64,000 nucleotides of DNA from Spirochaetota bacterium (GTDB taxonomy: Bacteria; Spirochaetota; UBA4802; UB4802): positions 1-64,000 of the forward strand of contig JAOAIH010000008.1 of assembly GCA_026414805.1 (NCBI GenBank), given 5' to 3'. A program made the position numbers and the translations under genes. Positions 49 through 38,076 of the stretch are shown piece after piece; position 1 is the first letter of the stretch; the number at the start of each line of letters is the position of its first letter. A model generated the notes under the pieces. It worked only from the letters and a program-made list of their open reading frames with translations. It searched no databases and was not told the DNA's origin.

Positions 49-164
49 ATGGGGTCAGAGCAATATAACAATGGTGTCAGAGTAAAAAACTTATGGTGCA
101 GTGTTTCAAGCTTATGATAATAGTTATAATCGCAGGGTATTATTTTAGGGTCAGAGCAAAAGGA
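49..164 (+). repeat. cluster of TGG(G/T)GTCAGAG(C/T)AA motif copies upstream of the beta-oxidation operon
   Basis: Copies at 49-63 (atggggtcagagcaa), 71-85 (atggtgtcagagtaa), 146-160 (ttagggtcagagcaa), and again at the start codon (400-415, atgggtgtcagagcaa). All are on the same strand. Confidence 0.5.
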
Positions 165-330
165 GTTTCAGATATTGGGAAATCTTTCAAGTTTATTACT
201 AGTAACTATCGCTCAATTTTAAATATAAACACTGATAAACATTGAAGCACATATCATAATCAAATTAACATATTTGCATTTTTTTACCTCCACCTTATAG
301 ATAGAATATAAAAAAATGAATACAAAAAGC

Positions 331-366
331 TTGACAAATAATGGCACAAAGGTTAATGGTTATTCA
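331..366 (+). promoter_or_regulatory. candidate sigma70-type promoter of the beta-oxidation operon
   Basis: TTGACA (331-336), 17-bp spacer, TAATGG (354-359). A GAGGAGG RBS lies about 7 nt upstream of the ATG at 400. Confidence 0.35.
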
Positions 367-399
367 TTCATTATATATTTATAGTTCAGAGGAGGCATT

Positions 400-1560
400 A
401 TGGGTGTCAGAGCAATTAAAAAAGTCACGGTTATAGGTGCAGGTGCCATGGGCAATGGTATAGCAGAAATTCATATTTTGAATGGATTTACCGTAACCAT
501 GGTAGATATTAAAGAAGAAGTATTACAAAAGGCTATCGACAAAATAAAAACAAATATTGCTTTTCTTGTTAATAAAGAAAAAATAACTCAGCAGGCCATG
601 GATGAAGCCTTGTCGCGGCTTTCTATATCTACTGATATTGCAGCATCGGTACATAATGCAGATTGTATTATAGAAGCAGTGCCAGAGGTAATGGATTTGA
701 AGAAAAATATATTTAAAACTGTATCAGATGCAGCACCTAAGGATGCAATTATAGCAAGCAATACTTCATCCCTGAGTATCAGTGAACTGGCTGAAGTGGT
801 GTCAGAGCCCTCACGTTTTGCAGGTTTTCACTTTTTTAACCCTGTGAACCGCATGCGTCTAGTTGAAGTAATTTATGGCCAAAAAACCTCTGATGACACT
901 ATTGAAGCATTGATGGAGCTGGGAACAAAATTGGGAAAGGTTGCCATCAAAGTATTGCGTGACCGGCCAGGTTTCATTGTGAACAGAATTAATGCTCCGC
1001 TCCAACCTTTATGGAGCGCAATTTTGGATGAAGGGAAAATATCACCTGCAAGCATTGATACTGTAATGAAGAATCATGGCGCAAAAATGGGACCTTTTGA
1101 ACTTATGGATTTTGTGGGACTGGATGTTATTTATAATGTGATGCAGTATTATAAAACCACTCTTTCACCTGAATGGGAACCCGGCAGGTTCATTAAAGAT
1201 TGTATAAAGAAAAATGAATTGGGCATGAAAACAGGCAAAGGTATATACGTATGGCAGGGTGGCAAAGCAATTATAGATACATCAACTGTTACAGATTATA
1301 TATTGCCAATTGATCCATTAGCAATCCAGCTTAATGAGTCGGTACGTGTATTAAAAGAAAAAGTGGCTGCCAGTGCTGAAGATATTGATAAAGGTCAGGA
1401 AGCAGGTATGAATCAGCCTGGACCTTTTAAAACAGCTATGAATGTTGATCATACGCTCCTAGCACAGCGATTACAATGGCTTAGTGACACATATAATTTG
1501 AGTTATATCAAACCCGAACCTGAAATTCTTGATGGAAGTTTTAGATCATTTTTGAAATGA
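400..1560 (+). CDS. hbd: 3-hydroxyacyl-CoA (3-hydroxybutyryl-CoA) dehydrogenase with a C-terminal extension
   Basis: N-terminal Rossmann motif VTVIGAGAMGNGIAE. Conserved NTSS and NPV motifs of the 3HCDH family. 386 aa, strong RBS. Confidence 0.85.
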   Translation: MGVRAIKKVTVIGAGAMGNGIAEIHILNGFTVTMVDIKEEVLQKAIDKIKTNIAFLVNKEKITQQAMDEALSRLSISTDIAASVHNADCIIEAVPEVMDLKKNIFKTVSDAAPKDAIIASNTSSLSISELAEVVSEPSRFAGFHFFNPVNRMRLVEVIYGQKTSDDTIEALMELGTKLGKVAIKVLRDRPGFIVNRINAPLQPLWSAILDEGKISPASIDTVMKNHGAKMGPFELMDFVGLDVIYNVMQYYKTTLSPEWEPGRFIKDCIKKNELGMKTGKGIYVWQGGKAIIDTSTVTDYILPIDPLAIQLNESVRVLKEKVAASAEDIDKGQEAGMNQPGPFKTAMNVDHTLLAQRLQWLSDTYNLSYIKPEPEILDGSFRSFLK

Positions 1561-1609
1561 ACGCATGTTGAAACAAGTGTACCCAAACACTTTTATCTGG
1601 AGGAAGAAT

Positions 1610-2383
1610 ATGGACGTGCACAATTTTATTGTAACTGAGGTGAAGAATTCTATAGCGTATGTGTTTATTAACAGAACAGAAGTTATGAATGCACTCAACA
1701 GGGCATTATTAAACCAATTAGGAGATAGGATCGATGCTGTATGTAGTGATAGTGGGGTCAGAGCACTCATTATTGCTGGCAAAGGAGATCACTTTGCAGC
1801 AGGTGCGGACATTGTTGAAATGTCAAATCAGACGCCACATGAGGCATTAGCCTTTAGTTTTAACGATGTGTATAATCGGATTGAACAATTGCATATACCA
1901 ACCTGTGCTGCAATAAGGGGATATGCGCTAGGAGGTGGGTTGGAGCTGGCGCTTGCATGTGATTTCAGAGTATGCCACACGTCTGCCCAGTTAGGACTTC
2001 CTGAAATAAAATTAGGCATTATTCCCGGTGCAGGTGGCACCCAGCGTTTGCCTCGCCTCATTGGATTGAGCCGCGCAAAAGAAATGATTTATAGCGGAGA
2101 GTTTATCACAGCCCAAAAGGCATATCAATGGGGTTTGTGCGATAGAGTAACTGATAATGATCCTATTGAAGAAGCTACAAACTTTTTACAATCTATTATC
2201 AAACGTCCTGTATTAGCATTACAGGCAGCTAAAAAAGCAATTATGTTTGGTGCCGATAGCTCCTTGCAAAAGGGCTTAGAGTTTGAGGCATTATCGTTTG
2301 GAGTATTGTTTTCAACTTATGACCAGAAAGAAGGCATGAATGCATTCATCGAAAAACGGAAACCTAACTTTAAAGGATATTAG
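1610..2383 (+). CDS. crt: enoyl-CoA hydratase (crotonase family)
   Basis: Crotonase signatures FAAGADI and [20 protein letters not shown]. The ATG at 1610 with a GGAGG RBS is preferred over the upstream ATG at 1565. Confidence 0.85.
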
Positions 2384-2398
2384 AAGAGGAGGTTGTTT

Positions 2399-3583
2399 AT
2401 GGAAAATAATGATGTTGTGATAGTTTCTGCATGCAGGTTAGCAATTGGCAAGTTTGGTGGAATGTATGCCACTATGAGTGCATTGGATTTAACAATTCCA
2501 GTAATGAAAGAACTTGTTGCACGTGCAAAAATAGATCCTGAGATAATTGATGATTGTATCTGGGGATGTAATTATCAAAAAACAAATGGCGAGAATAATC
2601 TTGCGCGTGTTGCTTTAGTAAAAGCTGGTCTTCCCATTACAGTGCCTGGTATAACTGTTCATAGAAACTGCACGTCATCTATGTCATCGGTACAATTGGG
2701 CTATTATCAGATAAAATCGGGTGAAGCAGATTGTATTGTAGCAGGTGGGACAGATAGCATGAGCAATGCACAGTACACAGTTGATAAGATGCGATATGGC
2801 ACCCGCATAGGCCATACCGAAATTCGTGATTCAATGTGGGATTCACTTACAAACTTGGGTATAGGTCCTGCTATGGGTATAACTGCTGAAAATTTAGCAG
2901 CAAAGTACGCAATATCACGTAAAGAGCAGGATGAATTAGCATTGCTATCGCATAGAAGAGCCATTGCAGCAATTGACAGTGGATATTTTAAGGATGAGAT
3001 AGTTCCTATTGAAGTTAAAATACAAAAAGATACAATCGTTGCACAGACTGATGAGCATCCTCGGCGTGATGTAACAATAGAAAAGCTATCAGCATTAAAA
3101 CCAGCATTTAAAGAAGACGGTACTGTCACGGCAGGGAATGCATCAGGTATAAATGATGGTGCAGCTGGAGTGATTCTCATGTCAGCAAAGAAAGCAAAAG
3201 AATTGAAAGTGCCAATATTGGGTAGAATTATATCAACTGCAACTGCGGGTGTTGACCCGGATATTATGGGTATTGGGCCAGTACCAGCAAGCAGGAAGGC
3301 ACTGGCAAAAGCAGGGTTATCATTAAAAGATATACACCTGGTTGAACTTAATGAAGCATTTGCTGCACAGTATTTGGCATGTGAAAAAGAATTAGGCCTT
3401 AACAGAGATATCACTAATGTAAATGGCAGCGGCATCTCATTGGGGCATCCAGTTGGCGCTACAGGTGTACGGCTTATTGTAACACTGGTACACGAAATGA
3501 AGCGAAGAAAAGTAAAATATGGCCTTGCCACATTATGTGCAGGAGGAGGTATGGGTACTGCTGTAATCATTGAGAACATATAA
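2399..3583 (+). CDS. acetyl-CoA acetyltransferase (thiolase II)
   Basis: Thiolase active-site context NCTSSM, GHPVGATG and C-terminal CAGGGMG. A GAGGAGG RBS lies 6 nt before the ATG at 2399; the ORF-track TTG at 2393 is unlikely. Confidence 0.85.
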   Translation: MENNDVVIVSACRLAIGKFGGMYATMSALDLTIPVMKELVARAKIDPEIIDDCIWGCNYQKTNGENNLARVALVKAGLPITVPGITVHRNCTSSMSSVQLGYYQIKSGEADCIVAGGTDSMSNAQYTVDKMRYGTRIGHTEIRDSMWDSLTNLGIGPAMGITAENLAAKYAISRKEQDELALLSHRRAIAAIDSGYFKDEIVPIEVKIQKDTIVAQTDEHPRRDVTIEKLSALKPAFKEDGTVTAGNASGINDGAAGVILMSAKKAKELKVPILGRIISTATAGVDPDIMGIGPVPASRKALAKAGLSLKDIHLVELNEAFAAQYLACEKELGLNRDITNVNGSGISLGHPVGATGVRLIVTLVHEMKRRKVKYGLATLCAGGGMGTAVIIENI

Positions 3584-3601
3584 CATAAAAGGGGGATCGG
3601 A

Positions 3602-5443
3602 ATGCGCCCAAATCTTTTAGTGGATTCACGTGATGTAAGATTTATATTATTTGAAATGTTTGATATTTTACAACTTTCAAAGTTTGATATATATAAAGAT
3701 TTTGATAGGGATACGTATGAGTCAGTTCTGGATTTAGCTGAAACTATTGCGATGGAAGAGATATATCCCGCAAATACTATTGCAGATAAAGAAGGAATAA
3801 AATTTGATCCGGATACTCACACTGTTGTGGTGCCACAAGTTTTTAAAAAAGCGATGCATGCATTTAATGAAGCGGGATTTACAGGTATAGCACAACCAAT
3901 ATCAAGTGGTGGAATGGGGATGCCCGAACTTATGTACCGCATGGCACTGGAGTATTTTTTGGCAGCAAGTATTTCATTTACTATTTATATAACGTTGTCA
4001 AATGGTGCCACTAATCTTGTTCGCATTTTTGGCAATGAAGAACAAAAGCGCCTGTATTTGGGAAATATGGTAAGCGGTAAATGGGGCGGCACAATGTGTT
4101 TGACTGAACCGCAGGCGGGCTCAGATGTTGGAGCTATAAAAACAAAAGCATATCGACAAAGTGATGGTACCTATTCAATTAAGGGACAAAAGATATTCAT
4201 ATCTTCGGGGGAGAATGACCTGTACGAGAATATTATTCATATGGTATTGGCACGAATTGACGGTGACCCTGATGGTACCAAAGGTTTGTCCTTATTCCTT
4301 GTTCCTAAAATACTGGTCAATTCTGATGGAACTTTAGGAAAGCGAAACGATGTCATATGCACAGGTGTTGAACATAAAATGGGTATTAAAGCTTCCGCAA
4401 CCTGTACATTGAGTTTTGGGGATAATGATTGCTGTGTTGGATACCTGTTGGGGAATGAACGCGATGGCATCAAGAATATGTTTCACATGATGAACGAAGC
4501 TCGCCTTGACGTGGGGCTGGAAGGATTGGGTGTTTCAAGTGCAGCGTATATGCATGCTGTGCAGTATGCAAAGTTGCGAGTACAAGGCAAGACTATTTCT
4601 AAAAGTGAGCCAACAATCATAGGGCATCCAGATGTAAAGAGAATGCTTTTGTGGATGAAATCACATGTGGAAGCTATGCGAATGCTTGTTGCTCTTACTG
4701 CATTTAACATCGATATTTCAAGAACTCGGAATGACGAAATTGGAAAGAAAGCTCATGCTCTTGTTGAGTTTTTAATTCCTATCTGCAAGGCAGGGAATAC
4801 TGATTTATCGTGGTTAATTACTGCAGAGGCTGTTCAGGTATTTGGAGGGTATGGATATTGTGGTGATTATCCTGTAGAACAATATGCGCGTGATGCAAAG
4901 ATATTGTCAATATATGAAGGCACCAATGGCATTCAGTCAATTGATCTTGCAATGCGTAAAATTGTATCTGATGAAAAAAGGGAGCGTTATAATGCTTATA
5001 AGGAATATGCATACCAAGTTTTAAAAAATGCGGGGGCGATAGTACCTGATGCAATAATCAAAGAAATTGAAAAAGCAATCAAAGAAATGGATTCACTTAT
5101 TGGTATCATTGAAGGCAAAGATGCTTCGGCGGTATTAAGTATAGCAACTCCTTTGCAGCAGGCATTCAGAATACTGACACATGGAATTTTACATGTACAT
5201 TCAATGACCATTGCTATAAAGAAATTATCTTCGATTGTCAGAGAATATACATTGGGAGATGTTCCTGATGGTATAGACGATAACAATGAAGTAGCATTTT
5301 ATTATGGTAAAGTTCTTTCTGCACAATTTTTTCTAAATATGGAATTTCCAAAATATTATAGCCTGCTTGATAGCATCCGCAATGAGAATGGCATTGTCAT
5401 GAAAGCAAAGGCAGCAATTTTTACCGGAGTTCAGGAAGCATAA
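3602..5443 (+). CDS. acyl-CoA dehydrogenase, long (about 600 aa) FadE-like form
   Basis: ACAD middle and C-terminal motifs (CLTEPQAGSD, YEGTNGIQ) in a 613-aa protein with an extra C-terminal domain. Follows the thiolase with a GGGGGA RBS. Confidence 0.8.
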   Translation: MRPNLLVDSRDVRFILFEMFDILQLSKFDIYKDFDRDTYESVLDLAETIAMEEIYPANTIADKEGIKFDPDTHTVVVPQVFKKAMHAFNEAGFTGIAQPISSGGMGMPELMYRMALEYFLAASISFTIYITLSNGATNLVRIFGNEEQKRLYLGNMVSGKWGGTMCLTEPQAGSDVGAIKTKAYRQSDGTYSIKGQKIFISSGENDLYENIIHMVLARIDGDPDGTKGLSLFLVPKILVNSDGTLGKRNDVICTGVEHKMGIKASATCTLSFGDNDCCVGYLLGNERDGIKNMFHMMNEARLDVGLEGLGVSSAAYMHAVQYAKLRVQGKTISKSEPTIIGHPDVKRMLLWMKSHVEAMRMLVALTAFNIDISRTRNDEIGKKAHALVEFLIPICKAGNTDLSWLITAEAVQVFGGYGYCGDYPVEQYARDAKILSIYEGTNGIQSIDLAMRKIVSDEKRERYNAYKEYAYQVLKNAGAIVPDAIIKEIEKAIKEMDSLIGIIEGKDASAVLSIATPLQQAFRILTHGILHVHSMTIAIKKLSSIVREYTLGDVPDGIDDNNEVAFYYGKVLSAQFFLNMEFPKYYSLLDSIRNENGIVMKAKAAIFTGVQEA

Positions 5444-5447
5444 TACA

Positions 5448-6338
5448 ATGAAGTTGCATGAATCAGTATATATCCATAATGCCGATGTAACGCCGCGCGG
5501 AAAAAGAGCTCTCATCGTTGAAGGTGGAGGCATGCGCGGCGTTTTTTCTGCCGGTGTCCTTTTCGCTATGGGGTTAGGAGGAGTTACACAATTTGATCTG
5601 TACATAGGGGTATCGGCTGGTGCATGTAATTTGGCATCATTTCTTGGTCGGCAGTATGAACGCAATTTTTACATAATGGAAAAGTGGTCGGCTTCAAAGC
5701 GGTTTATCAATCCATTGCGGTTATTGTATGGCAATGTAATGGATTTAGACTGGCTATGGGATACTACTATCAGTAACTATCGCCTAAACTTAAAAGAAAT
5801 ATTTAAGGATACAACAAAAGAGTTCCTTATTGTGGTTACCTCAATGAATACAGGGAAGGCACTGTACATTAAGCCATGTGAAGATAATCTTGAATTTGTT
5901 TTGAAAGCTTCAAGTGCCTTACCAATTTTATATAGAAATACATTGTACATTGATGGGCACCGTGTAGCTGATGGTGGTGTAGGTGATTCAATTCCTGTTT
6001 TAGAAGCATACAAAAGAGGTGCTCGTGATATTGTCGTCATTCGTTCGCAGGGCAAGGGGTACAGAAAAAATAATATAAAGTTTAAGCCTATTTTAAAAAT
6101 ACTATTTTTACGCTATCCAGAATTTACTCATGCTTTGATGCAAAGGCATACGATGTATAATGCTGCGATTGAATTTATTGAAAAGCCACCGGGTGATGTA
6201 CGGATTATAGAAGTGTGCCCGCCTGCTACATTCAAAACTAAGCGCACAACAACTCATACACAAAAACTTTTAAAAGATTATTATACAGGCATACAGGCTG
6301 GTTATGCACTATGCAGGTATTATAAACAATTTTTATAG
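5448..6338 (+). CDS. patatin-like phospholipase
   Basis: GGGMRG oxyanion motif, GVSAG (GxSxG nucleophile elbow) and a DGG catalytic Asp motif. Confidence 0.8.
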   Translation: MKLHESVYIHNADVTPRGKRALIVEGGGMRGVFSAGVLFAMGLGGVTQFDLYIGVSAGACNLASFLGRQYERNFYIMEKWSASKRFINPLRLLYGNVMDLDWLWDTTISNYRLNLKEIFKDTTKEFLIVVTSMNTGKALYIKPCEDNLEFVLKASSALPILYRNTLYIDGHRVADGGVGDSIPVLEAYKRGARDIVVIRSQGKGYRKNNIKFKPILKILFLRYPEFTHALMQRHTMYNAAIEFIEKPPGDVRIIEVCPPATFKTKRTTTHTQKLLKDYYTGIQAGYALCRYYKQFL

Positions 6339-6403
6339 AATGGAGGATTTATATGGAACGCATTTGGGAAAAATATTATGATTTCTGGTATCATCCCGTT
6401 AAT

Positions 6404-7012
6404 TTATTGATCTTGTGGTAACGAAGCAAGTTCAGGATACCGTGCATTCACTTTGCTGTAGAAATCCTTTATAATCTGAAAATCAGCTTTCATATTACCA
6501 GTAGGATATACCACAGCCCCCACACCTCCTGATTTTGATTTGTAATCTAAAAATGCCAGAATTATAGGAACATTGGCTCCTACTGCAATATGATAGAAAC
6601 CAGTTTTCCATTTTTCAACTTTTTTACGTGTTCCTTCTGGAGCTAATGCAATAGCAAATTTTTCATATTTTTTATATAAATCTATAGTTGCCTGTACGGT
6701 ATTACTTGATACAGAACGATCAATAGGTATTCCACCTAAGAAACGGACAAGTGGTGCAAACGGGAAACGGAATAGCTGACTTTTAGCCATAAAATATATA
6801 TCAACTTTGAATGCGAAAGCAAGTAAAATGCCATAAAATACATCCCAGTTTGATGTGTGAAAAGCTAAAATAGCCAGATATTGTGGCACATCAGGCAATG
6901 TCCCTACTTTTTTCCATCCTACCAGCATTCTTATTAGAAATGCAAGTATACGAAGTATATGTTTAATTATAGGAGTATTGAACATTGTGTACTGGATTCT
7001 TTTTTTTGTCAT
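6404..7012 (-). CDS. 1-acyl-sn-glycerol-3-phosphate (lysophospholipid) acyltransferase, PlsC family
   Basis: HxxxxD motif (HTSNWD) and APEGTR motif. 202 aa. Confidence 0.75.
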   Translation of the reverse strand: MTKKRIQYTMFNTPIIKHILRILAFLIRMLVGWKKVGTLPDVPQYLAILAFHTSNWDVFYGILLAFAFKVDIYFMAKSQLFRFPFAPLVRFLGGIPIDRSVSSNTVQATIDLYKKYEKFAIALAPEGTRKKVEKWKTGFYHIAVGANVPIILAFLDYKSKSGGVGAVVYPTGNMKADFQIIKDFYSKVNARYPELASLPQDQ

Positions 7013-7117
7013 GGTAACTATCGCCCTTATTTAAAAAATTTTTTGGCGATTACACTATAGTATTGATAATAATACAATCATATTTTATGATGTAATGCAA
7101 AAAAAGTAGGATACAAT

Positions 7118-7804
7118 ATGAATTCATTCAACTGGAACTGCAGTGTACAGGAAGCCATTGAATTACAGAAACATCTTTCGCATAGTGTAATTGTAAAAGG
7201 AAAACCGGATAAAATAGAGTACATTGCTGGCATTGATGTTGCTCTGACCCCTTTGGGTGTTGGTTATTGTATTATTGCTGTTTTCAGCTTTCCTGAATTG
7301 AAGTTTTGTGAAGAAGTTTTTAGTTCTGGCCCAATTACATTTCCGTATGTTCCAGGGCTTTTATCATTCAGAGAAGGACCTCTGATAGTACAGGCGTATA
7401 AAAAGTTAAACATTAAACCAGATATCCTTATTTTTGATGGTCAGGGTATTGCTCATCCCAGACGTTTTGGTATTGCTTCGCATATTGGGGTGTTGCTTGA
7501 TATCCCAGCAATAGGCTGTGCAAAATCACGGTTATGTGGTACATACAGTGAGCCTGGTATCAGTAAGGGAGACAGATCCTATCTTTATGACAATGGTGAG
7601 TGTATAGGTGTGGTATTGCGAACACGTACACGAGTAAAGCCTGTTTTTGTATCACCAGGAAATAAAGTTGGTATAGATGAAGCTGCAGACATTATACTGA
7701 AATGTACCGATAACTATCGTATACCAGTACCTACACGCTATGCACATTGTAGAGTGGGAGAGTATAAAAGAAATGCAGTTGATACCAATGAAAAAAATAG
7801 TTGA
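7118..7804 (+). CDS. nfi: endonuclease V (deoxyinosine 3' endonuclease)
   Basis: Nfi motifs GIDVA, PYVPGLLSFRE and DGQGIAHPRRFGIASHIGV. Confidence 0.85.
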   Translation: MNSFNWNCSVQEAIELQKHLSHSVIVKGKPDKIEYIAGIDVALTPLGVGYCIIAVFSFPELKFCEEVFSSGPITFPYVPGLLSFREGPLIVQAYKKLNIKPDILIFDGQGIAHPRRFGIASHIGVLLDIPAIGCAKSRLCGTYSEPGISKGDRSYLYDNGECIGVVLRTRTRVKPVFVSPGNKVGIDEAADIILKCTDNYRIPVPTRYAHCRVGEYKRNAVDTNEKNS

Positions 7805-7962
7805 TTTTTAAAAAATAATAACATGTTGTATGGATTACTTTAAATTATATATCATAAAGGTTTATAAATTATATACTATGCTATGTTTAATAATTTTTGA
7901 AAGTATAAAAGATTGCTATGAATGATAATTGAGGCAAGAATAATACACATTAATTTGTATTG

Positions 7963-8664
7963 ATGGTGAATGTAATGAACCAAATACAATGTAATATTTG
8001 TAAAAAGATGTTCTGGGAAGAGAATATGATAGTTGGACATGGTATTAACCATGAAATAGAAGATTTAATCAGAAAGGATTATCCTGAATGGAATGATTTT
8101 TGCTGGATATGTAAAAATGATCTTAATGCTTTTAAAATAAAATATATTATGAATCTTATTGAAAGCGAAAAAGGAAGTATAGAAAATCTTGAAAGAGAGG
8201 TTATTCAAAGTATACAAGAAAATGATTTATTAACATTTAATACAAATTTGCCCAAAGAAAAGTTGAAGATTAGGGAAAGAATAGCAGATAAAGTTGCATC
8301 ATTTGGTGGAAGCTGGAAGTTTATAATAATATTTATTTCTATTTTAGTAATGTGGATAGTTATTAACGGTTTCTATATTATTAATAAGCCATTTGATCCC
8401 TATCCATTTATATTATTAAATTTAATTTTATCATGTTTAGCTGCTTTGCAAGCACCAATTATAATGATGAGTCAGAATCGTCAGGAAATGAAAGATCGTA
8501 TCCGTTCAGAGAATGATTATAAAATAAATTTAAAATCTGAAATTGAAATTAGAACCTTACATGAAAAAGTTGACCATTTATTGCTTGATCAATGGTCGAA
8601 AATGATGAAAATACAGCAAGTCCAACTGGAGATATTAGAAGAAATAAGTAATAAGTTTAAATGA
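7963..8664 (+). CDS. DUF1003-family membrane protein with an N-terminal Cys-rich (CxxC ... CWIC) region
   Basis: PFDPYPFILLNL...AALQAPIIMMSQNRQ matches the conserved DUF1003 core. Two TM helices. The N-terminus carries CNICKK and CWICKND pairs. Confidence 0.55.
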   Translation: MVNVMNQIQCNICKKMFWEENMIVGHGINHEIEDLIRKDYPEWNDFCWICKNDLNAFKIKYIMNLIESEKGSIENLEREVIQSIQENDLLTFNTNLPKEKLKIRERIADKVASFGGSWKFIIIFISILVMWIVINGFYIINKPFDPYPFILLNLILSCLAALQAPIIMMSQNRQEMKDRIRSENDYKINLKSEIEIRTLHEKVDHLLLDQWSKMMKIQQVQLEILEEISNKFK

Positions 8665-8862
8665 GTAAACATTATCCTTTGCTTTATTCTATTACTGTAG
8701 TGGTAATTTGATTTAATATTGGTGAAATAATTGGTTAGCAGAATGAAAGGTTTATAGGGAATATCTTTTTTTGAAAGATTGTATAGTACTTTCCTAATAT
8801 TCAATAAGAATATGATCAATTATTTAGCCTTGCCATGTAACAAATAATAATGGTGGTATTAT

Positions 8863-10431
8863 ATGAATGTATCTTTGACTAATGATTTTTCTTCTTATAT
8901 CAATCAACTTATTTATTCGTGGCTCAAAACCTTGATCCTTCTTGGATCTGTTCTTGTTCCAGGGTTTTTGATCCTAGATTATGTTATAACTCCACATGAA
9001 TTATTCCCGCGTTTTGTTGTATATAGAGCGGTATCCACAACACTGTTGATATTCCAGTATTTCATTTTGCGCATGTCAAAACCTGGCAGGTTTAATATAA
9101 TACATGGCTATGCAGCAACGTTGAATACAGGTTTTGTTATTTCCCTGATGACTGTTGACTTGGGTGGTTTTGCTTCCAGTTATTATGCAGGGCTTAACCT
9201 GGTTATCATTGGTGTTAATCTGTTAATTCCATGGCCATTTATTCATTCTTTGATTAATGGACTTGTTGTGGTGAGCATGTATGTAGGGCTTAATATTATC
9301 GCAATAGATTCTATTGATTATATAAGTATGATAAATAATCTTTTCTTTATGATATCAACAGTAGTCATCACTGCTAGTTTTAGCTATTTACGCTTTAAAC
9401 AGCTAAAAAGTGAATTTGATTTACGTGCACAGCTCACAAATGCTCAGGTTGATGAAATACAGGCTCTTGTGAATGTTGCTACAATTATCTCACGGGGTGA
9501 CCTTACAGTTACTATTAGTACATCTTCGGGTGGTGCTGCTGGAGCGCTTGAGCAGGCATTCAGCGTCATGGTGGCAAACTTAAGGCAGGCAATACAGCAA
9601 TTTAAAGAGCTTTCGCAAAATCTTACACTCTACAGTGATACAATTAAAGATAGCACCACCGCAATTCAAAAAGGTGTAGATGTACAGTTGCAGGTTACAA
9701 GCAATGCATCACATATAATTCAGAATATGACTCAGTGGTTTTCAAAAAATGCGCGCGAATCTGAAGATATACAAAAGCTGGCAAATAATGCAATACACGC
9801 TGCTACTGAAAGCAGCGCGTTGATGGATAAAGCAATTAAAAGCATGAACAGGATTGCACAGGTTGCAAAAATATCTTCACAGGAAGTTGAATCATTAAGC
9901 CAGTCCAGTAAAAGAATTCATGAAATAGCAGAAGCAATTGAGGAGATAGCTGACCAGACTAACCTTTTGGCACTCAATGCAGCTATAGAAGCAGCGCGGG
10001 CTGGAGAGCATGGACGAGGGTTTGCGGTTGTTTCTGACGAGGTAAGTAAATTAGCTGACCGTACAAGCAGAGCAACTAAAGAAATATCCACTATGACGGA
10101 GAGGATAATCAGAGATATTGCAAATACTGCAAGTGCCATGTTTGAAGTAAATAAAGAAGTTGAGACATCTTCTGCACTTATTACCAGTATGAACAGCCAG
10201 ATGAATGAATTGGTGAACCTTGCGCACAAGTTTAATTCCTTAATTGCACATATTTCACAATCTTCAAAAGACCAGTCAGTGCTGATTGCTGATGCTGGAA
10301 AAACACTCCACAGTATAAATGCTGTTTCCGATGAGCTATCGCAACTTGTAAAAGATATTAATGGTATTGTAAACGGAATGTATGAGTTGATAGAGAAACT
10401 TGAAACTATGGTGAAGGAATTTAAAGTGTAA
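8863..10431 (+). CDS. methyl-accepting chemotaxis protein with a multi-helix membrane N-terminus
   Basis: Highly conserved MCP signalling hairpin [34 protein letters not shown]. About 5-6 predicted TM helices at the N-terminus. Confidence 0.85.
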
Positions 10432-13120: not shown

Positions 13121-13494
13121 CTGTCATTATGAGAAGCGATATATTCCTTATATCGTATTGAAGAGTGCGGTACTCTCTTTTGTCGTATCAAGAAGCGTGG
13201 TACTCCCTCCTGTCATTTCGAGGAGCGAAGCGACGAGAAATCTTCACTTCACACAAGAGGAAAGATTTCTCATCCCGATAAATCGGGATTTGAAATGACA
13301 GAGTAGCAGAGAAGTGATTGGAAATGACAAGGTAGGAGACAAGGGATTGTAAATGACAAGGTAGGAGACAAGGGATTGTAAATGACATAGTAGCGAGTAA
13401 GGGACTACAAATGACAGAGTAAAAAGTAAAGAATTTGTAGTAACAGAGTAGCCAATAGTGATTTGAAATGGCAGGGTGATGATAATGTATTAGA
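13121..13494. repeat. composite repeat: about 4 reverse-orientation units (13121-13240), two perfect hairpins (13235-13289), then about 7 direct 29-bp units (13294-13494)
   Basis: Direct units such as aaatgacaaggtaggagacaagggattgt occur twice identically plus 5 degenerate copies. The upstream units (..gtactccctcctgtcattt..) are their reverse complements. Hairpin stems are gagaaatctt/aagatttctc (10 bp) and atcccgat/atcgggat (8 bp). Confidence 0.8.
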
Positions 13495-26684: not shown

Positions 26685-27968
26685 TTAATCTAACTCCTTT
26701 TTTACCGGCAGAGACTTCCTTTCATCTAATATCTTAGTTAAATCCACGCCTGTTGCAGTCTTGATTTGCTCTATAAAAGATATAACGCTAGAAGTGACAT
26801 CACCCACATGCTTTGGTATGCCGCCATCTCCCATAACAACAAGTTTTTCCACTTTAAGGTTGTCCTTGAGTACTGTAGAAACGCTATCAACTATGTTTGG
26901 CAAAAGATGCAGCATGAACAGTTCCTTGGTATTGCCGTTTTGCCATTCAGCACGCATCTTGCTCACAGCTTCAGCCATTGCAATACCCTGTTCCTTCAAA
27001 TACGATGATTGACCCATGGCTTTGAGTTCTTGTGCTTTCTTTTCGGCTTCTGCTGGAATTATCACTTCAGCTGTGTATTTCTTTGCATTAACATCTTTTT
27101 TTAATTCTTCTACTTCGGACAGATGCTTAAGCTCAGCCAATTTCTTTGCAAATTCTGCTCGTACTTCCTTTTGGTAAGTTGATTCATTAAGCAGCGCTTT
27201 GCGTTCTCTAAAATTGTTTTCATACTCCTCAATTGCTATTTTAGATTGAAATTCAACATCACTTGCTTTTTTCCTGGCATTGTACTCAACAATCTTTGCT
27301 TCAGCTTCAGCTTCGGCTTCTTTGATGCGTGCATCACGCTTAACAATTGCATTTCGCTGACGTCCCACAGCGTCAAGATACCCCTGCGAATCTTTAATCT
27401 CTTCAATCTTCACTGAATCCAGGGTAAATCCCAATTTCATCAATTCATCTTTTGCCAGTTCAAATACCTTTTTTTCAAGTTCAAGTCGTTGATAGTTGGC
27501 TTCTTCTGGTGTAAATGTTGCGATAACACCCCGAAGGACACCTTCAATTGTATTCTTTGCTATGGTTTCAATCTCAGAGGATGGTTTTCCAAGAAGCCGT
27601 TCAACGGCATTTTCCAGTCCACCTCCTTCTTTTGAGGCAATCTTGACATGAGCTATCGCCACGATACTTAATGGTATCATTCCGTTGGATAGTGCGCCTT
27701 CAATTTCAAGGGTAATAGGAATAATTGAAAGCGACAGCCGTGAAACGCGCTCCAGAAGTGGAACACGCAAGCCATAACCACCGCGTATCACACGGTATCC
27801 TACAACTTCGCCGCTTGGGAGTTTACGCTTGCGACCAGAGAATATTAGGATTTCATTTGGTTCGCATATTTTTAGATTGACTTTTATAAAGATAAGAATT
27901 GCAGCAATTGCAATAATGGCAACTGAGATCACCAATGCCCAATCAATGTTTGCTAAGTAGTTTTCCAT
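26685..27968 (-). CDS. flotillin-like SPFH/band-7 protein (YuaG/FloT-like) with an Ala/Glu-rich coiled coil
   Basis: N-terminal TM helix, SPFH core (EPNEILIFSG...GYRVIRGG...VPLLERV), then an EAEAEAEAKI coiled-coil region. Confidence 0.8.
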   Translation of the reverse strand: MENYLANIDWALVISVAIIAIAAILIFIKVNLKICEPNEILIFSGRKRKLPSGEVVGYRVIRGGYGLRVPLLERVSRLSLSIIPITLEIEGALSNGMIPLSIVAIAHVKIASKEGGGLENAVERLLGKPSSEIETIAKNTIEGVLRGVIATFTPEEANYQRLELEKKVFELAKDELMKLGFTLDSVKIEEIKDSQGYLDAVGRQRNAIVKRDARIKEAEAEAEAKIVEYNARKKASDVEFQSKIAIEEYENNFRERKALLNESTYQKEVRAEFAKKLAELKHLSEVEELKKDVNAKKYTAEVIIPAEAEKKAQELKAMGQSSYLKEQGIAMAEAVSKMRAEWQNGNTKELFMLHLLPNIVDSVSTVLKDNLKVEKLVVMGDGGIPKHVGDVTSSVISFIEQIKTATGVDLTKILDERKSLPVKKELD

Positions 27969-30363: not shown

Positions 30364-31889
30364 TGGATATCAGAACATATAATTCTTTTGATTTATACAC
30401 ATTGTTAAATGACACTGATGTCACCATTATAAAGGGTGATGAGGATATACGTATCAGTGCCATTGAATATGACTCACGAAAAGTTGAGAAAGAAAGCCTG
30501 TTTGTTGCCATTGAAGGTATGGAAACGGATGGTCATAAATTCATTAAGGATGCAGTTGAAAATAAAGCATCATGTATCGTATTACATGAAAATCGCCTTG
30601 ATGAGTTTAGCTTTTTGCTTGAACAAAAAGAACTTGCTGTAGCAACTGCAAAAGATACCCGTAGAGCCTTATCGCAAATTTCGGCAAAGTTTTACGGAGA
30701 ACCATCGCTGAAAGCAGTTGTTATTGGCGTTACAGGTACCAACGGCAAAACTACCACTACCTATATGCTGGAGTCAATTCTCTCCAGTGCAGGGTTTACA
30801 TGTGGCGTCATAGGTACCATTAACTATCGCTGGAAAGACAAAATTATCAATGCTTCGCATACAACACCTGAATCAAAAGATTTACAGGATATCATGGCAA
30901 CAATGGTTTTAGATGGTGTGGATTGCATAATAATGGAAGTCTCTTCCCATGCGCTATCGCTTTTGCGTGTAGATGATATCCATTTTGATTGCTGTATATT
31001 TACCAATCTTACGCGAGACCATCTGGATTATCATATTACGTTGCACGATTACTTTATGGCAAAGGTTCGTTTATTTGATATTTTGAATAAAAGCCTCAAG
31101 CAGAAAAAAGCAGCATTTATTAATGCTGATGATAATTATGGCAAACAGATATTACAATGGCGCCAGCGCTATGGCTATCCGCTTTTTTCGTTTGGAGTAA
31201 GCAGTAATGCTGATTATCACTGTAGTGAATCCTCAATACAGATATCCATAAAGGGCACTCAGTTTTCTACTGATATGCCATTTGCCAAACAATTCACCAT
31301 GCGCCTGGCTGGCAGATTCAATGTATATAATGCTCTGGGAGCTATAGGAGTGGCAGATTTTTTAAATGTACCTTTAGGAAAGATAGTGACAGGCCTGTCA
31401 GTCCTTTCAAATGTTCCCGGCAGATTTGACACATTGCTGTCGCCTGAAGGTTTTGCAGTGGTTGTGGATTATGCCCATACCAATGACGCACTTGAAAAAT
31501 TGTTGCTTTCAGTACGTTCGTTAAAACCTGAGCGTATAATAACTGTATTTGGGTGCGGTGGTAACCGGGATAAAACAAAGCGCCCACTGATGGGCAAGGT
31601 AAGTGAGGACTATTCGGACTGGGTGATTGTTACCAGTGATAATCCCAGAAAAGAAAACCCTGAGGCAATCATACGTGATATTACCGCAGGGATGAAGTCA
31701 AACCGCTATCAGATAATTGTGAACAGGGAGGAGGCAATCAAACAGGCAATATATATGGCATCAAAAGATGATATTGTGGTCATTGCTGGCAAAGGTCATG
31801 AAGATTATCAGATCATTGGTACCAAGAAGTATCACTTTGATGATAAAGAAATTGCCCGCAAATACATTCATGAGAGGCTTGCACAGTGA
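30363..31889 (+). CDS. murE: UDP-N-acetylmuramoyl-L-alanyl-D-glutamate--2,6-diaminopimelate ligase
   Basis: Mur ligase motifs GVTGTNGKTTTT, the DNPR motif and the KGHEDYQ C-terminal domain. Confidence 0.9.
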   Translation: MDIRTYNSFDLYTLLNDTDVTIIKGDEDIRISAIEYDSRKVEKESLFVAIEGMETDGHKFIKDAVENKASCIVLHENRLDEFSFLLEQKELAVATAKDTRRALSQISAKFYGEPSLKAVVIGVTGTNGKTTTTYMLESILSSAGFTCGVIGTINYRWKDKIINASHTTPESKDLQDIMATMVLDGVDCIIMEVSSHALSLLRVDDIHFDCCIFTNLTRDHLDYHITLHDYFMAKVRLFDILNKSLKQKKAAFINADDNYGKQILQWRQRYGYPLFSFGVSSNADYHCSESSIQISIKGTQFSTDMPFAKQFTMRLAGRFNVYNALGAIGVADFLNVPLGKIVTGLSVLSNVPGRFDTLLSPEGFAVVVDYAHTNDALEKLLLSVRSLKPERIITVFGCGGNRDKTKRPLMGKVSEDYSDWVIVTSDNPRKENPEAIIRDITAGMKSNRYQIIVNREEAIKQAIYMASKDDIVVIAGKGHEDYQIIGTKKYHFDDKEIARKYIHERLAQ

Positions 31890-33262
31890 TTGTACGGTTT
31901 GAAACAACTTCACAGACCATTGCAGAGGCCATACATGCAGTGCATCATGGCAGTGACAAGCCTGTGCAGTATATTACCACCGATTCGCGCCTTGTAGATG
32001 ACAATAGCCTGTTTGTGCCAATAGTAGGTCACAAATTTGATGGCCATGAGTTTATTGATGATGTGTGTAAAACTGGCAGATGTTCTGCATATCTTACACA
32101 TAGGGCAGATATAGTAGAAAAGGCCACACAGTATAATGTAAGCGCAATCTATTGCAACGATACATTGCAGGCGTATGCAGCAATAGCTAGGTGGCACCGC
32201 AAAAAATTTAATATACCAGTAATAGGTATTACCGGTACCAACGGCAAAACAACCACAAAAGAAATGATTGCCCATGTACTAGCCGCTCATGGTAATTGCC
32301 TTAAGACCCAAAAGAATTATAACAATGAAATTGGTGTGCCATTTACAATTTTACATTTAGATACTACGCACATGCATGCAGTCATTGAAATGGGGATGAA
32401 TCACTCTGGTGAGATATCACGTCTTTCACATATAGCAATGCCCACAATAGCTGTAATTACCAATATTGGCGAGGGGCATCTGGAGTTTTTAGGTTCAACC
32501 GAAAATGTGGCTCATGCAAAATCAGAGATTATGGATGGGATGTCACAGGGTAGTATATGCATCCTTAACAATGACACAAAGCACACTGATATTGTAAAGA
32601 AGAAAGCGCGTGATAAAAATATTAAAATTGTAACATATGGTCTTACAGGTGATGTGTGCCCATCATCGTACTCATTATTCTGTGACAGAACCACAGTGGA
32701 GTATGATGGAATTGAAATTACCGTTCCTGCGTATGGTTTGCACAATGTATATGCGGCGATAGCTACCATTGCTGTTGCCCGGGTAATGGGCATACCACTT
32801 GATTCAGTAAAGGAAGCATTGCACAGTTTCAAGCCAGTGACGATGCGAAGTGACATTAAGAAAGGCCGCTGCATCATCATCGATGATTGCTATAATGCAA
32901 ATCCACTGTCGATGGAGTATGCATTCAAAAGTGCTGCAATGGTATTTTCAGATAAAAGAAAGATTGCAGTGTTATCGGATATGAAAGAACTTGGGAGCCT
33001 TTCTAAGGATTTGCATTTTTCTGTTGGGACAAAATTACACGATCATGGCTTTGAGCGTCTATTTGTGTATGGGTCTGATGCACAGTATATTGCCCAAGGT
33101 GCAATTGCCGGTGGATTGAAAACTTCACAGGTGAGCGTGTTTAATACCAAAGAGGAACTGATTGCTTTTTTACTTACCTTTGTGAAGGAAGATGATGTGG
33201 TGCTTGTCAAAGGTTCCCGTTCAATGAAAATGGAAGAGGTAGTGAACGCATTAGAACAGTGA
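31886..33262 (+). CDS. murF: UDP-N-acetylmuramoyl-tripeptide--D-alanyl-D-alanine ligase
   Basis: GITGTNGKTTTKE P-loop and Mur ligase middle and C-terminal domains. Confidence 0.85.
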   Translation: MIVRFETTSQTIAEAIHAVHHGSDKPVQYITTDSRLVDDNSLFVPIVGHKFDGHEFIDDVCKTGRCSAYLTHRADIVEKATQYNVSAIYCNDTLQAYAAIARWHRKKFNIPVIGITGTNGKTTTKEMIAHVLAAHGNCLKTQKNYNNEIGVPFTILHLDTTHMHAVIEMGMNHSGEISRLSHIAMPTIAVITNIGEGHLEFLGSTENVAHAKSEIMDGMSQGSICILNNDTKHTDIVKKKARDKNIKIVTYGLTGDVCPSSYSLFCDRTTVEYDGIEITVPAYGLHNVYAAIATIAVARVMGIPLDSVKEALHSFKPVTMRSDIKKGRCIIIDDCYNANPLSMEYAFKSAAMVFSDKRKIAVLSDMKELGSLSKDLHFSVGTKLHDHGFERLFVYGSDAQYIAQGAIAGGLKTSQVSVFNTKEELIAFLLTFVKEDDVVLVKGSRSMKMEEVVNALEQ

Positions 33263-33263
33263 G

Positions 33264-34355
33264 GTGAATATGTTTTATCACTTTATTTTGCCTTTACAGG
33301 AATATCTGTCGTTTTTGCGATTGTTTCAATATATTACATTTCGTTCGGCGTATGCTGCATTGACGTCACTTTTGATAGTGTTGCTATTTGGCGGAGTGGT
33401 TATACGGTGGCTTACTCAGCTTCGCTTTAAAGAAGAAATCCGTACGCTGGGTCCACAGTCACATCACAAAAAGGCGGGAACTCCCACAATGGGTGGTGTA
33501 CTAATTCTTGGTGCAGTACTAATTTCAGTGCTATTGTGGGGTAATTTTAATAACCTGTATGTCATTTTGTTAATAGTTATCACAATTCTTTTGGGTGTTC
33601 TGGGATTTATAGATGATTATATCAAATCAATACTGAAGAAAAAAGACGGTATTCCTGCGCGAGTTAAATTTTTACTGCAGTGTGTAAGTGCGCTTGTTGT
33701 TGCACTGTGTATATATTTTTTCCCATCTAATGCAAAAGAAGCTACCACGCTGTATGTCCCCTTTATTAATAAAGCAGTAGTTGATATGTCGTGGGTGTGG
33801 ATAATATTTGCCATGCTTGTTATAGTGGGTAGCTCCAATGCTGTTAATCTGACTGATGGTCTTGATGGGCTTGCAATTGGAACTGTGACTATAGTTGTTG
33901 GTGTTCTTGCAGTGATGGCATATCTTACCGGACATCAACCCATTGCACAGTATTTGCGTATTCCCTATATTCCTCAGGCAGCTGAATTGACCGTATTTCT
34001 GGCTGCACTGGGTGGTGCAGGTCTTGGGTTTTTATGGTTTAACTCAAATCCCGCATCAGTGTTTATGGGTGATACCGGTTCGTTAGCGTTGGGTGGCATT
34101 ATTGGTACTGTGGCCATAATGATTAAAAAAGAAATATTCCTGGTTATAGTTGGGGGCATTTTTGTTATTGAAGCGCTATCGGTTATGATTCAGGTTGTCT
34201 GGTACAAATTAAGAAAAAAGCGTGTATTTAAAATGGCGCCCATTCACCACCATTTTGAGCTATCAGGGTGGCCTGAGCAAAAGGTGGTGGTGCGCATGTG
34301 GATCATTGGCATTATACTGGCAATATTGGGTTTGAGTTCACTGAAGATTTTGTAA
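33264..34355 (+). CDS. mraY: phospho-N-acetylmuramoyl-pentapeptide transferase
   Basis: MraY motifs PTMGG, NAVNLTDGLDGLA and the HHHFE region. 10 TM helices. Confidence 0.9.
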   Translation: MNMFYHFILPLQEYLSFLRLFQYITFRSAYAALTSLLIVLLFGGVVIRWLTQLRFKEEIRTLGPQSHHKKAGTPTMGGVLILGAVLISVLLWGNFNNLYVILLIVITILLGVLGFIDDYIKSILKKKDGIPARVKFLLQCVSALVVALCIYFFPSNAKEATTLYVPFINKAVVDMSWVWIIFAMLVIVGSSNAVNLTDGLDGLAIGTVTIVVGVLAVMAYLTGHQPIAQYLRIPYIPQAAELTVFLAALGGAGLGFLWFNSNPASVFMGDTGSLALGGIIGTVAIMIKKEIFLVIVGGIFVIEALSVMIQVVWYKLRKKRVFKMAPIHHHFELSGWPEQKVVVRMWIIGIILAILGLSSLKIL

Positions 34356-34428
34356 TTGTGTGGCGACAGCTCCTATGAGCTATCGCCCATTTATAAATGG
34401 TCTTAATTTTTGTTAAAGGATAGAAACA

Positions 34429-35808
34429 GTGGAGCAGAAAAAACATATACTTGTAGTTGGATTGGGGTACAGAACAGGACTTGCGTCAGCTAATTTTTTA
34501 TACAATAAAGGGTTTGCTGTTACAGTGTGTGATATAAAATCACGTGATGAGCTTATGCCCATTATACAAAAATTAAATCCCGGTATAACTGTGATAGCGG
34601 GCAATCAGGATAAAGCTATTCTTGATGCAGGATTTGACGAAATTGTTATAAGCCCTGGAGTTCCGCAGAGCATCCCATTAATTCAAGAAGCTAAAGCAAA
34701 AGGCATCCCGGTAATATCCGAAATTGAGCTGGCATACCGATATGGTAAATCGTATATCGTTGGCATCACTGGAACTGATGGTAAATCAACCACTACTATG
34801 CTCACTGCACACTGTTTGAAAGCAACTGGATTTGATGCACACCCTTGCGGCAACATTGGGATTCCCTACGTGTCAATAGTTGATGAATTAGCACAGGGTT
34901 CTGTTGCTGTGATTGAGCTTTCATCGTTCCAGCTTGAAACTATTCATACTTTTAAACCTGATGTTGCAATCTTCACTAACCTAACACCTGATCATCTTGA
35001 CCGCTATGATTCACTTGAGGATTATTTCAATGCAAAGATGAACATTTCAAAAAATCAGGGGAGCAGCGATTATTTTATTGTAAACAGTGACGATGAATTT
35101 GTAATTACCCATCTGCCCCCATTGCAAGCAACTCAATATTCATTTTCGCTTCAAAAAGAGGCTGAGTGCTATTATAGGGATGGTGCAATTTATTGCACGC
35201 TGAATGGCAAACATCAATTGATAGCAAAAGCCGAAAAATTTAAAATATTGGGATTGCACAATGTTCAGAATGCAATGGCAGCAATACTGGCAACGCTTTC
35301 CATTGCAAAAAAGGCAAATAAAGAAATTAACCTTACTCAGCTTGAACAAGCGCTGTATAGTTTTGAGGGATTACCGCATAGAGTTCAAATGGTAGGAGTT
35401 TTTCAGGGCAGGTCATTTATAAATGATTCAAAGGCAACAACTGTGGGTGCCGTTATCATGGCGTTGAAGAGCATTCCGGCAAATGTGATTCTTATACTTG
35501 GAGGAAGAGCAAAAGGGGATGATTATTCAAGGCTTAAAAACTTTTTTAAGGGGAAAGTCAAAGCTTTAATACTTATTGGTGAAACCAAAGATGAGTTTGC
35601 AAAACTTTTTTATGATATACCGCATATCAAAGCGCATACCATGGAAGATGCAGTAATCAAGGCTATGGGGGTGAGCACACAGGGTGATACAATTCTGCTT
35701 TCACCGGCTTGTGCTTCATTTGACATGTATAAAAATTATGAAGAACGGGGGAATGATTTTATTGATATTTTCAGAAGGCTTTCACGGGGGCAATTGCGGT
35801 GGATGTAA
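34429..35808 (+). CDS. murD: UDP-N-acetylmuramoylalanine--D-glutamate ligase
   Basis: GITGTDGKSTTT P-loop and MurD N-terminal Rossmann LVVGLGYRTG. Confidence 0.85.
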   Translation: MEQKKHILVVGLGYRTGLASANFLYNKGFAVTVCDIKSRDELMPIIQKLNPGITVIAGNQDKAILDAGFDEIVISPGVPQSIPLIQEAKAKGIPVISEIELAYRYGKSYIVGITGTDGKSTTTMLTAHCLKATGFDAHPCGNIGIPYVSIVDELAQGSVAVIELSSFQLETIHTFKPDVAIFTNLTPDHLDRYDSLEDYFNAKMNISKNQGSSDYFIVNSDDEFVITHLPPLQATQYSFSLQKEAECYYRDGAIYCTLNGKHQLIAKAEKFKILGLHNVQNAMAAILATLSIAKKANKEINLTQLEQALYSFEGLPHRVQMVGVFQGRSFINDSKATTVGAVIMALKSIPANVILILGGRAKGDDYSRLKNFFKGKVKALILIGETKDEFAKLFYDIPHIKAHTMEDAVIKAMGVSTQGDTILLSPACASFDMYKNYEERGNDFIDIFRRLSRGQLRWM

Positions 35809-38065: not shown

Positions 38066-38076
38066 GAGCAGGGGAA

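Follow-up and report, generated by a model that had tools for sequence, protein, structure and literature searches.

The window analysed here, a stretch of 64,000 nucleotides (nt) from a Spirochaetota bacterium (contig JAOAIH010000008.1, positions 1 to 64,000), opens with a beta-oxidation operon around which a short DNA word is repeated. The operon starts with the genes for 3-hydroxyacyl-CoA dehydrogenase (hbd, 400-1560) and enoyl-CoA hydratase (crt, 1610-2383); thiolase, acyl-CoA dehydrogenase (acd) and patatin-like genes are also present in the window, as are a PlsC-type acyltransferase gene (6404-7012, minus strand) and the endonuclease V gene nfi (7118-7804), all of them confirmed by Pfam. 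The word, with the consensus RGKGTCAGAG(C/T)M, occurs seven times between 50 and 7252 and not once in the other 57 kb. The exact 14-mer TGGKGTCAGAGCAA has a single match in the window, at 50-63. When up to two mismatches were allowed, eight sites were found (50, 72, 146, 402, 797 and 1753 on the plus strand, 7239-7252 on the minus strand, and 25246, a doubtful and unrelated-looking match), whereas 100 dinucleotide shuffles gave 0.72 on average and never more than 4. Seven of the eight fall within 11% of the window (p about 2e-6 by our binomial estimate). The 8-mer core GTCAGAGC is found seven times where 0.6 would be expected, and its sole occurrence outside the left-end cluster, at 36161, is missing the GG prefix. 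The mismatch scan and the shuffles thus bear out the seven left-end copies, with none beyond, of a first-pass annotation of this DNA; the cluster stands where it had been placed, with exact positions corrected by 0-2 nt (49, 71, 400, 796 and 1752 become 50, 72, 402, 797 and 1753).

Three of the copies are intergenic and lie upstream of hbd: copy 1 at 50..63 (TGGGGTCAGAGCAA), copy 2 at 72..85, 22 nt after copy 1 (TGGTGTCAGAGTAA, a GTCAGAGT variant), and copy 3 at 146..159 (TAGGGTCAGAGCAA, followed by AAGGA), all on the plus strand. The others are intragenic. Copy 4 (402..415, plus) overlaps hbd codons 1-6, where ATG GGT GTC AGA GCA ATT encodes MGVRAI; copy 5 (797..810, plus) lies within hbd codons 133-137 (GTG TCA GAG CC, VSEP); copy 6 (1753..1766, plus) lies within crt codons 48-53 (GGG GTC AGA GCA, GVRA); and copy 7 (7239..7252, minus) is antisense in nfi codons 41-45, the sense strand reading GCT CTG ACC CC (ALTP). 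All six copies of the hbd upstream region and the hbd operon are in sense orientation. This is the placement first proposed, with co-directional copies before and over the hbd start and others inside hbd, crt and nfi.

Scanning genomes with the hbd protein recovered loci from four related Spirochaetota metagenome-assembled genomes (L001-L004, 76-83% amino-acid identity), and a metagenome scan added five more loci with the hbd operon, giving a set of 10 genomes that share the hbd context. Copy 3 of the window is orthologous to a GG[GT]GTCAGAGCAAAAGG copy in L001, L002 and L003. The intragenic positions are occupied with great regularity: G[GT]GTCAGAGC is found at hbd +4 in nine of ten genomes (it is missing in L004), at hbd +399 in all ten, at about +1315, within crt, in all nine that reach that far, and at nfi in each of the six that extend to it. 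The copy at 7239 is the remnant of a satellite cluster of three to four copies that is present at nfi in relatives.

The codons that spell these copies are far more constant than their surroundings. At residues conserved in five genomes, the background rate of identical codons is 10% for 4-fold, 6% for 6-fold and 41% for 2-fold degenerate codons. The motif codons GTG TCA GAG in hbd (V, S, E) and GTC AGA in crt are identical in five genomes, and GCT CTG ACC, the sense strand of the antisense copy in nfi, is identical in three. The third base of the Pro codon that follows copy 5 takes all four values, and that of the Pro codon adjoining the nfi copy takes three. As a rough estimate, the product of the background codon rates for the motif codons is <1e-6. 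Within copy 5, GTGTCAGAGCC forms an 11-nt invariant run that is among the longest in the operon alignment, and codon-level constraint on the motif was repeated in an unrelated neighbourhood, composed of mfd and three hypothetical genes. Because the word is read in five different frames among the intragenic copies (GVRA, VSE, QGQS, antisense ALTP and antisense SDT), the constraint is not on the peptide; because the copies persist although synonymous sites are otherwise saturated, it is the DNA word that is selected. In hbd, crt and nfi the motif copies are unchanged at every base in 3-10 related genomes. In-frame insertion of 12 nt was considered as a source of the intragenic copies and rejected, as no indels were seen relative to orthologues.

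The window contains no Y1_Tnp gene in its 64 kb, but its closest relatives have one immediately beside the motif array. In L002, a divergent open reading frame (ORF) of 191 codons shares the 360-nt hbd upstream region and matches Pfam Y1_Tnp (PF01797, IS200-like; E = 3.5e-13). L001 starts with the same gene, its first 20 residues identical, and the gene is likewise upstream of hbd and divergent in L101, L104, L106, L114 and L126. Since the first array copy in these relatives is 111-126 nt from the start codon of the gene, on the opposite strand, base 1 of the window should fall about 60-120 nt short of the expected start codon. The gene would thus lie just left of base 1, divergent and on the minus strand; copy 1 would belong to its gene-proximal direct array, and its predicted TGA stop would fall inside GCTCTGAC(A/C)C. 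An alternative offered at first pass, that the cluster is the edge of a locus-specific repeat extending to the left, was essentially right, in that the cluster of the relatives is centred on a gene immediately left of the equivalent of base 1. L004 is arranged differently: proA is directly upstream of hbd, and both the upstream copies and the +4 copy are absent.

The product of this gene resembles the RAYT proteins, the transposase-like partners of repetitive extragenic palindromic (REP) sequences. It is a Y1 HUH protein of 190 amino acids (aa) with an IS200-like fold and an intact catalytic HuH motif and Tyr. Across 22 sequences H59 and H61 (the HuH), Y124 and N128 are invariant within a YxxxNP signature, with the Pro present in most; the protein has the motifs NH[IVFL]H, WN and Y[FLI][AG][NFY]NP, and its C-terminal 55 aa form small helices, with no helix-turn-helix (HTH) in Pfam. 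The AlphaFold model (pLDDT 93.5) has as its best match in the PDB 4er8, E. coli TnpA(REP) with a REP hairpin (Foldseek E = 1.4e-7, TM 0.73), which is also the best match by sequence (E = 5.6e-5). The score against NCBIfam REP_Tyr_transpos (NF047646) is 68.6, under the cut-off of 80. With 81 representatives (E <= 1e-30) out of a superfamily of >10,000, the full-length family is small.

The motif goes where this gene goes. A protein search returned 57 homologues of the RAYT-like protein. Those at 77-87% identity are divergent from mfd, with three hypothetical genes next in line and hbd absent; at one such locus (L081), all 12 core copies (GTCAGAG[CT]) fall within 3.8 kb around the gene, and the remaining 16 kb has none. 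At 50-63% identity the homologues occupy three further contexts, where the motif likewise clusters around the gene, so that besides hbd the motif-bearing contexts include mfd, ClpA/ApbE, gap/tpi and TonB-receptor genes. Scanning metagenomes with 22 aligned family members yielded 80 loci; copies of G[GT]GTCAGAGC were pooled over these and binned according to how far they lie from the midpoint of the gene. The first kilobase 5' of the midpoint has 2.63 copies per kb; on the 3' side the density falls from 1.35 in the first kb to 0.95, 0.50 and 0.34 per kb in the second, third and fourth. Beyond 4 kb most bins have 0.03-0.19 per kb, and the outermost one on the 5' side, which takes in satellite clusters, reaches 0.34; the chance expectation is about 0.004 per kb. 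By comparison of their flanks, the 61 loci with at least 2.5 kb of flanking sequence fall into 23 context groups. The motif therefore co-localises with the Y1 gene across about 23 unrelated neighbourhoods, among homologues that span 46-99% protein identity, and no gene common to the 23 contexts was found besides the Y1 gene. The expectation that the motif would mark beta-oxidation or lipid genes did not hold; it follows the RAYT-like gene into contexts that are mostly not lipid-related. No second Y1 or RAYT copy was found at any locus compared, and a second copy was accordingly rejected as the cause of the satellite clusters.

Among 521 unique instances, information is confined to the 12 positions R-G-K-G-T-C-A-G-A-G-C-M; the motif is not self-complementary and has no dyad. 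Upstream of the gene it forms a direct array of 2-8 copies with irregular spacing (29-120 nt). In the clade to which the window belongs, the array is on the strand opposite the gene, with which the window copies at 50, 72 and 146 agree; the TGA stop of the gene lies inside an antisense copy (TTG CTC TGA CAC C), and copies on the same strand bracket the gene. A clade at 50-54% identity has inverted copies on either side of the gene, one set at -90 to -170 and the other, past the stop, at +57 to +75. Some 390 unique copies were sorted by location, 61% falling in intergenic or unassigned DNA and 39% in coding sequence, the coding copies dividing into 96 sense and 55 antisense (n = 151). The lagging-strand-template bias expected of Y1 substrates was sought and rejected, since the G-rich strand has 135 copies and the C-rich strand 136.

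A few loci carry more elaborate forms of the motif. In array units at L108 (about 9260-9300), L172, L174 and L176, a canonical GTAG plus hairpin REP (GTAGGGGCGCATCGnGATGCGCC) lies about 10 nt 5' of the motif, and a pair of inverted motif copies at 9780-9815 in L178 makes up a REPIN-like dimer (GGGGTCAGAGCC-N14-GGCTCTGACCCC). It is possible that these units and the dimer are intermediates between the motif and classical REPs. Two further loci, L086 and L087, encode an identical RAYT protein and have nearly identical contigs outside a 1.7-kb tract 3' of the gene (about 7500-9250), where identity is about 75-80%; the recombinant allele alters which motif copies occur. Templated short-patch conversion creating a copy (GVTV versus GVRA) was considered for this pair and rejected, the difference being an allelic replacement within the recombinant tract.

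The spelling of the motif also varies with the protein. When proteins were clustered at about 60% identity, cluster 8 (7 loci) was found to use the word GCTCAGAGCAA, with 38 CTCAGAGC versus 4 GTCAGAGC within ±2 kb of the gene and 13 copies of CTCAGAGC over the whole L144 locus. Cluster 9 (14 loci) uses GGKGTCAGAGTAA, with 42 copies of GTCAGAGT versus 14; GTCAGAGT, the variant represented by copy 2 of the window, thus dominates there. The word of the remaining clusters is GTCAGAGC. The motif variants track protein clades: whole clouds of copies switch together with the protein, as direct recognition predicts. More distant homologues of 283 aa have GGGGTCAC / GGGGTCACATCTTGTACTATGATA 46 nt upstream and an inverted copy 1.4 kb away.

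We consider it probable that a single-copy Y1 HUH nuclease of RAYT/TIRYT type recognises RGKGTCAGAG(C/T)M as its cognate motif; the gene for this nuclease would lie just left of the window. The Y1 protein itself would bind the motif, and probably nick or rejoin it, as E. coli TnpA(REP) does with REPs. Copies close to the gene would delimit or regulate it, the proximal array acting on its own promoter, and the bracketing copies would mark the unit that has moved between contexts. In the relatives sampled, the local cloud around the gene consists of the array upstream of the promoter (to which 50-159 would correspond in the window), a copy at or just after the stop, further copies in either orientation for about 4 kb on both sides, and occasional satellite clusters up to about 9 kb away (7239 would be one in the window). 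Intragenic copies would persist through a benefit of having sites in cis, for example by holding or titrating a potentially genotoxic nuclease, by autoregulation, or by local DNA processing, and the hbd-crt operon would merely be the current neighbour.

Several points weigh against this reading. The Y1 gene is outside the window, and its place just to the left is deduced from synteny; binding and cleavage of the motif by the Y1 protein are likewise what we infer, and a host factor regulating the Y1 gene would fit the co-localisation too. L004, with no Y1 gene in the 10 kb upstream, nonetheless keeps three intragenic copies, the two shared hbd and crt ones and one in acd, and the satellite clusters 7-9 kb off show no obvious tie to the gene. 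To our knowledge, every characterised Y1 enzyme recognises folded single-stranded DNA (ssDNA), yet the motif has no hairpin: its 45-nt flanks fold with means of -5.4 and -5.0 kcal/mol, compared with -6.3 kcal/mol for controls. A hidden hairpin beside the motif was rejected on these values, as the flanks fold no better than controls. Without a hairpin, recognition must therefore differ from that of all characterised Y1 enzymes, and this absence is both the main weakness of the explanation and its main point of interest.

A bolder extension, which we offer as tentative and would sooner doubt than accept, is that a domesticated Y1 nuclease keeps a kb-scale cloud of its own non-hairpin word of 11-12 nt, written into the coding sequence of its neighbours and rewritten when its specificity shifts. 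If true, such a cloud would be a new kind of cis-acting chromosomal domain, serving self-sequestration, autoregulation or local DNA marking, and not a dispersed family of REP type.

The competing explanation that survives best, although we judge it unlikely, is that a host DNA-binding protein (a transcription factor or nucleoid protein) reads the motif and controls the RAYT-like gene and its neighbours, with the nuclease gene as target. In its favour, the distance between the RAYT promoter and the proximal array upstream of it is fixed, the motif is found in either orientation and within genes, as some auxiliary operators are, and it lacks the hairpin of known Y1 substrates. But a host factor leaves unexplained why no other gene is common to the 23 contexts, and variants that shift with the RAYT clade would be unexpected unless a separate factor co-varied too; moreover, distantly related TIRYT-type genes carry the same GGGGTCA core.

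Less likely still, and improbable in our estimate, is that the copies are selfish, non-functional debris, short repeats seeded by local transposase activity in the manner of REP proliferation and with no role for the host. Repeats believed to be mobilised by RAYT and TIRYT genes typically flank them (PMC3733652, PMC6006769, PMC8266576), and the fall in density with distance resembles local hopping. Debris, however, should neither enter genes without leaving indels relative to orthologues, nor be kept at synonymous sites where other synonymous sites are saturated, nor be retained at orthologous positions in up to 10 genomes.

The first-pass annotation had favoured an operator array for a fatty-acid-responsive regulator of the hbd-crt-thiolase-acd operon, which we now regard as very unlikely. 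Its appeal was the four co-directional copies within 400 bp of the hbd start and the two more inside the operon, and in L178, a further relative, an hbd homologue lies 3 kb away from the RAYT gene. The motif, however, is asymmetric and not a dyad, it clusters wherever the RAYT-like gene sits, be it next to mfd, ClpA/ApbE, gap/tpi or TonB-receptor genes, and L004 retains the operon, its promoter and the palindrome described below without the upstream copies. The TetR/FadR-type regulator gene that might have been expected nearby was not found in the first 8.7 kb of the window or in the 10 kb upstream in L002. The hbd promoter itself (TTGACA at 331-336, N17, TAATGG) offers an alternative: the palindrome GTTAATG-N6-CATTAAC (352-371), with an imperfect right arm in the window, overlaps its -10 element. 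It is kept in nine of nine genomes compared: seven have it perfect, while the window and L106 each carry a single substitution in the right arm. It is present in L004 even though that locus is without the RAYT gene and the upstream motif copies. The palindrome is the better and more conventional operator candidate, and likely the one that truly serves the beta-oxidation operon.

An RNA-level element in the operon mRNA, such as a target of a small RNA or a site for an RNA-binding protein, would suit the sense orientation of all six copies in the hbd upstream region and operon, but is similarly hard to credit when 55 of 151 coding copies elsewhere are antisense, the conserved nfi copies are antisense, the upstream arrays lie on the strand opposite the RAYT gene, and neither an Rfam match nor an associated structure was found. 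Three further candidates were rejected: known RNA families and tRNA-like elements, none of which matched; an origin or partition site cluster, as no dnaA or par genes lie within 10 kb in L002 and the motif is unlike the DnaA box; and sigma-54, extracytoplasmic-function (ECF) sigma or Pho-box consensus sequences, no partner element being conserved at fixed spacing.

Returning to the proposed pairing of nuclease and motif, two kinds of described systems bear comparison. Cognate REP hairpins flank RAYT genes and are cut by the enzyme in the form of folded ssDNA (PMC3333891, PMC3479197, PMC8266576). The TIRtrons are RAYT-like TIRYT genes flanked by inverted repeats, some of which share GGGGWSAS (Di Nocera et al. 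2013, PMC3733652). In the classification of Quentin et al. (2018, PMC6006769), TIRYT corresponds to TnpA-Y1 subclass 2.1, with proteins of about 238 aa that carry NH[VYF]H, YIELNP/Y[IV]HLNP and a C-terminal HTH, and no REP-like sequences are stated to have been found for subclasses 2.1 and 2.3.

The locus is like a TIRtron in having a RAYT-like Y1 HUH gene in single copy, with non-REP repeats at its flanks that are only moderately abundant and often clustered; GGGGTCAG fits GGGGWSAS, with the GGTGTCAG variant off at one position, and the clade at 50-54% identity has inverted bracketing copies at fixed distances. It differs in that the repeat is only 11-12 nt with no extended terminal inverted repeat, the bracketing copies in the clade of the window are direct and not inverted, the upstream array of up to 8 copies is joined by a conserved kb-scale cloud, 39% of it in coding sequence, and the protein, at 190 aa, shows no Pfam match to the C-terminal HTH of subclass 2.1. 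With the REPtron of E. coli (yafM, 4er8; PMC3333891, PMC3479197, PMC8266576) it shares the protein fold and catalytic motifs, a single-copy and vertically inherited gene, and a cognate repeat that adjoins the gene and co-evolves with the protein; a class-2 Y1 HUH gene is adjacent to the motif in the relatives only. REPs, in contrast, are hairpins of 20-40 nt with a 5' GT[AG]G, extragenic and scattered genome-wide in tens to hundreds, whereas the motif here is non-palindromic, has no flanking hairpin, and is local and often intragenic, as judged from the loci compared.

As an analogy of mechanism only, the iterons and origin repeats of HUH Rep proteins and the parS/ParB system also present short asymmetric repeats in irregular arrays beside the gene of the presumed reader, with sites inside coding sequence kept at the nucleotide level; they differ in that no replication or partition function is nearby here and the protein family is another. 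An IS200/IS605 insertion sequence was rejected, with one copy per locus, none elsewhere in the 64 kb, no hairpins, no tnpB among the neighbours, and homologue clusters found mostly on 1-2 contigs with identity grading from 93 to 46%. In the RAYT, REP and TIRYT literature we found no short non-palindromic word that forms a local array together with a kb-scale, partly intragenic, conserved cloud, and a literature search for the word itself returned primers only. The best reading of the arrangement is that it is REPtron- or TIRtron-like but unusual, in its short non-palindromic motif, in being local and not genome-wide, and in having 39% of its copies intragenic and conserved.

We know of no DNA partner so far for the RAYT/TIRYT-type subclasses without REPs. 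The family described here bears on what domesticated transposases of this type do and why they persist, and gives a sharply defined partner motif of 11-12 nt with clade variants. It also shows, from natural sequences, that selection acts on single sites, among them synonymous positions in housekeeping genes, and that synonymous sites near such genes are not neutral. More generally, when motifs cluster next to a metabolic operon, they can belong to a neighbouring gene and not to regulation of the operon.

Other elements were seen in the window. A second word, GGCGATAG(C/T)T(A/C), the reverse complement of GTAACTATCGCC, is genome-wide in character, with CTATCGCC present 23 times in the 64 kb. 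It is found at 202-214, 5035, 5773-5784, 7014-7025, 11054, 12949, 17234, 25418, 27649-27660, 34375-34387, 48337-48349, 49925, 56875, 57455-57467 and 59031, among other positions. The word is often directly 5' of a start codon (GGCGATAGTTACC-ATG at 7012, GGCGATAGCTCATT-ATG at 48335) or reads ATGAGCTATCGCC on the other strand. Its two intragenic copies at 5034 and 5775 rank with the longest stretches that 5 genomes share unchanged, and every hbd upstream region has one copy, as do many RAYT arrays. At 34373-34400 it forms the palindrome GGCGATAGCTC-ATAG-GAGCTGTCGCC. It resembles the ops element, GGCGGTAG.

At the 5' end of the patatin-like gene (5490-5549), the GC-rich arms ACGCCGCGCG and CGCGCGGCGT are followed by TTTTTT. 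The arms are invariant in 5 genomes (runs of 9 and 18 nt) despite 4-6-fold degenerate codons, and the fold is a terminator-like hairpin with a large loop (dG -30.6), though with a z-score of only -1.2. A 29-bp tandem repeat, GATTTGAAATGACAGAGTAGCAGAGAAGT, occurs four times at 72-100% identity in a gap between ORFs (13281-13477), with further partial copies at 86-87-nt spacing. Finally, three Mur-ligase paralogues of the dcw cluster (30719-38449) have in common a 56-nt stretch encoding the P-loop, at 70-71% identity, a case of ordinary paralogy.

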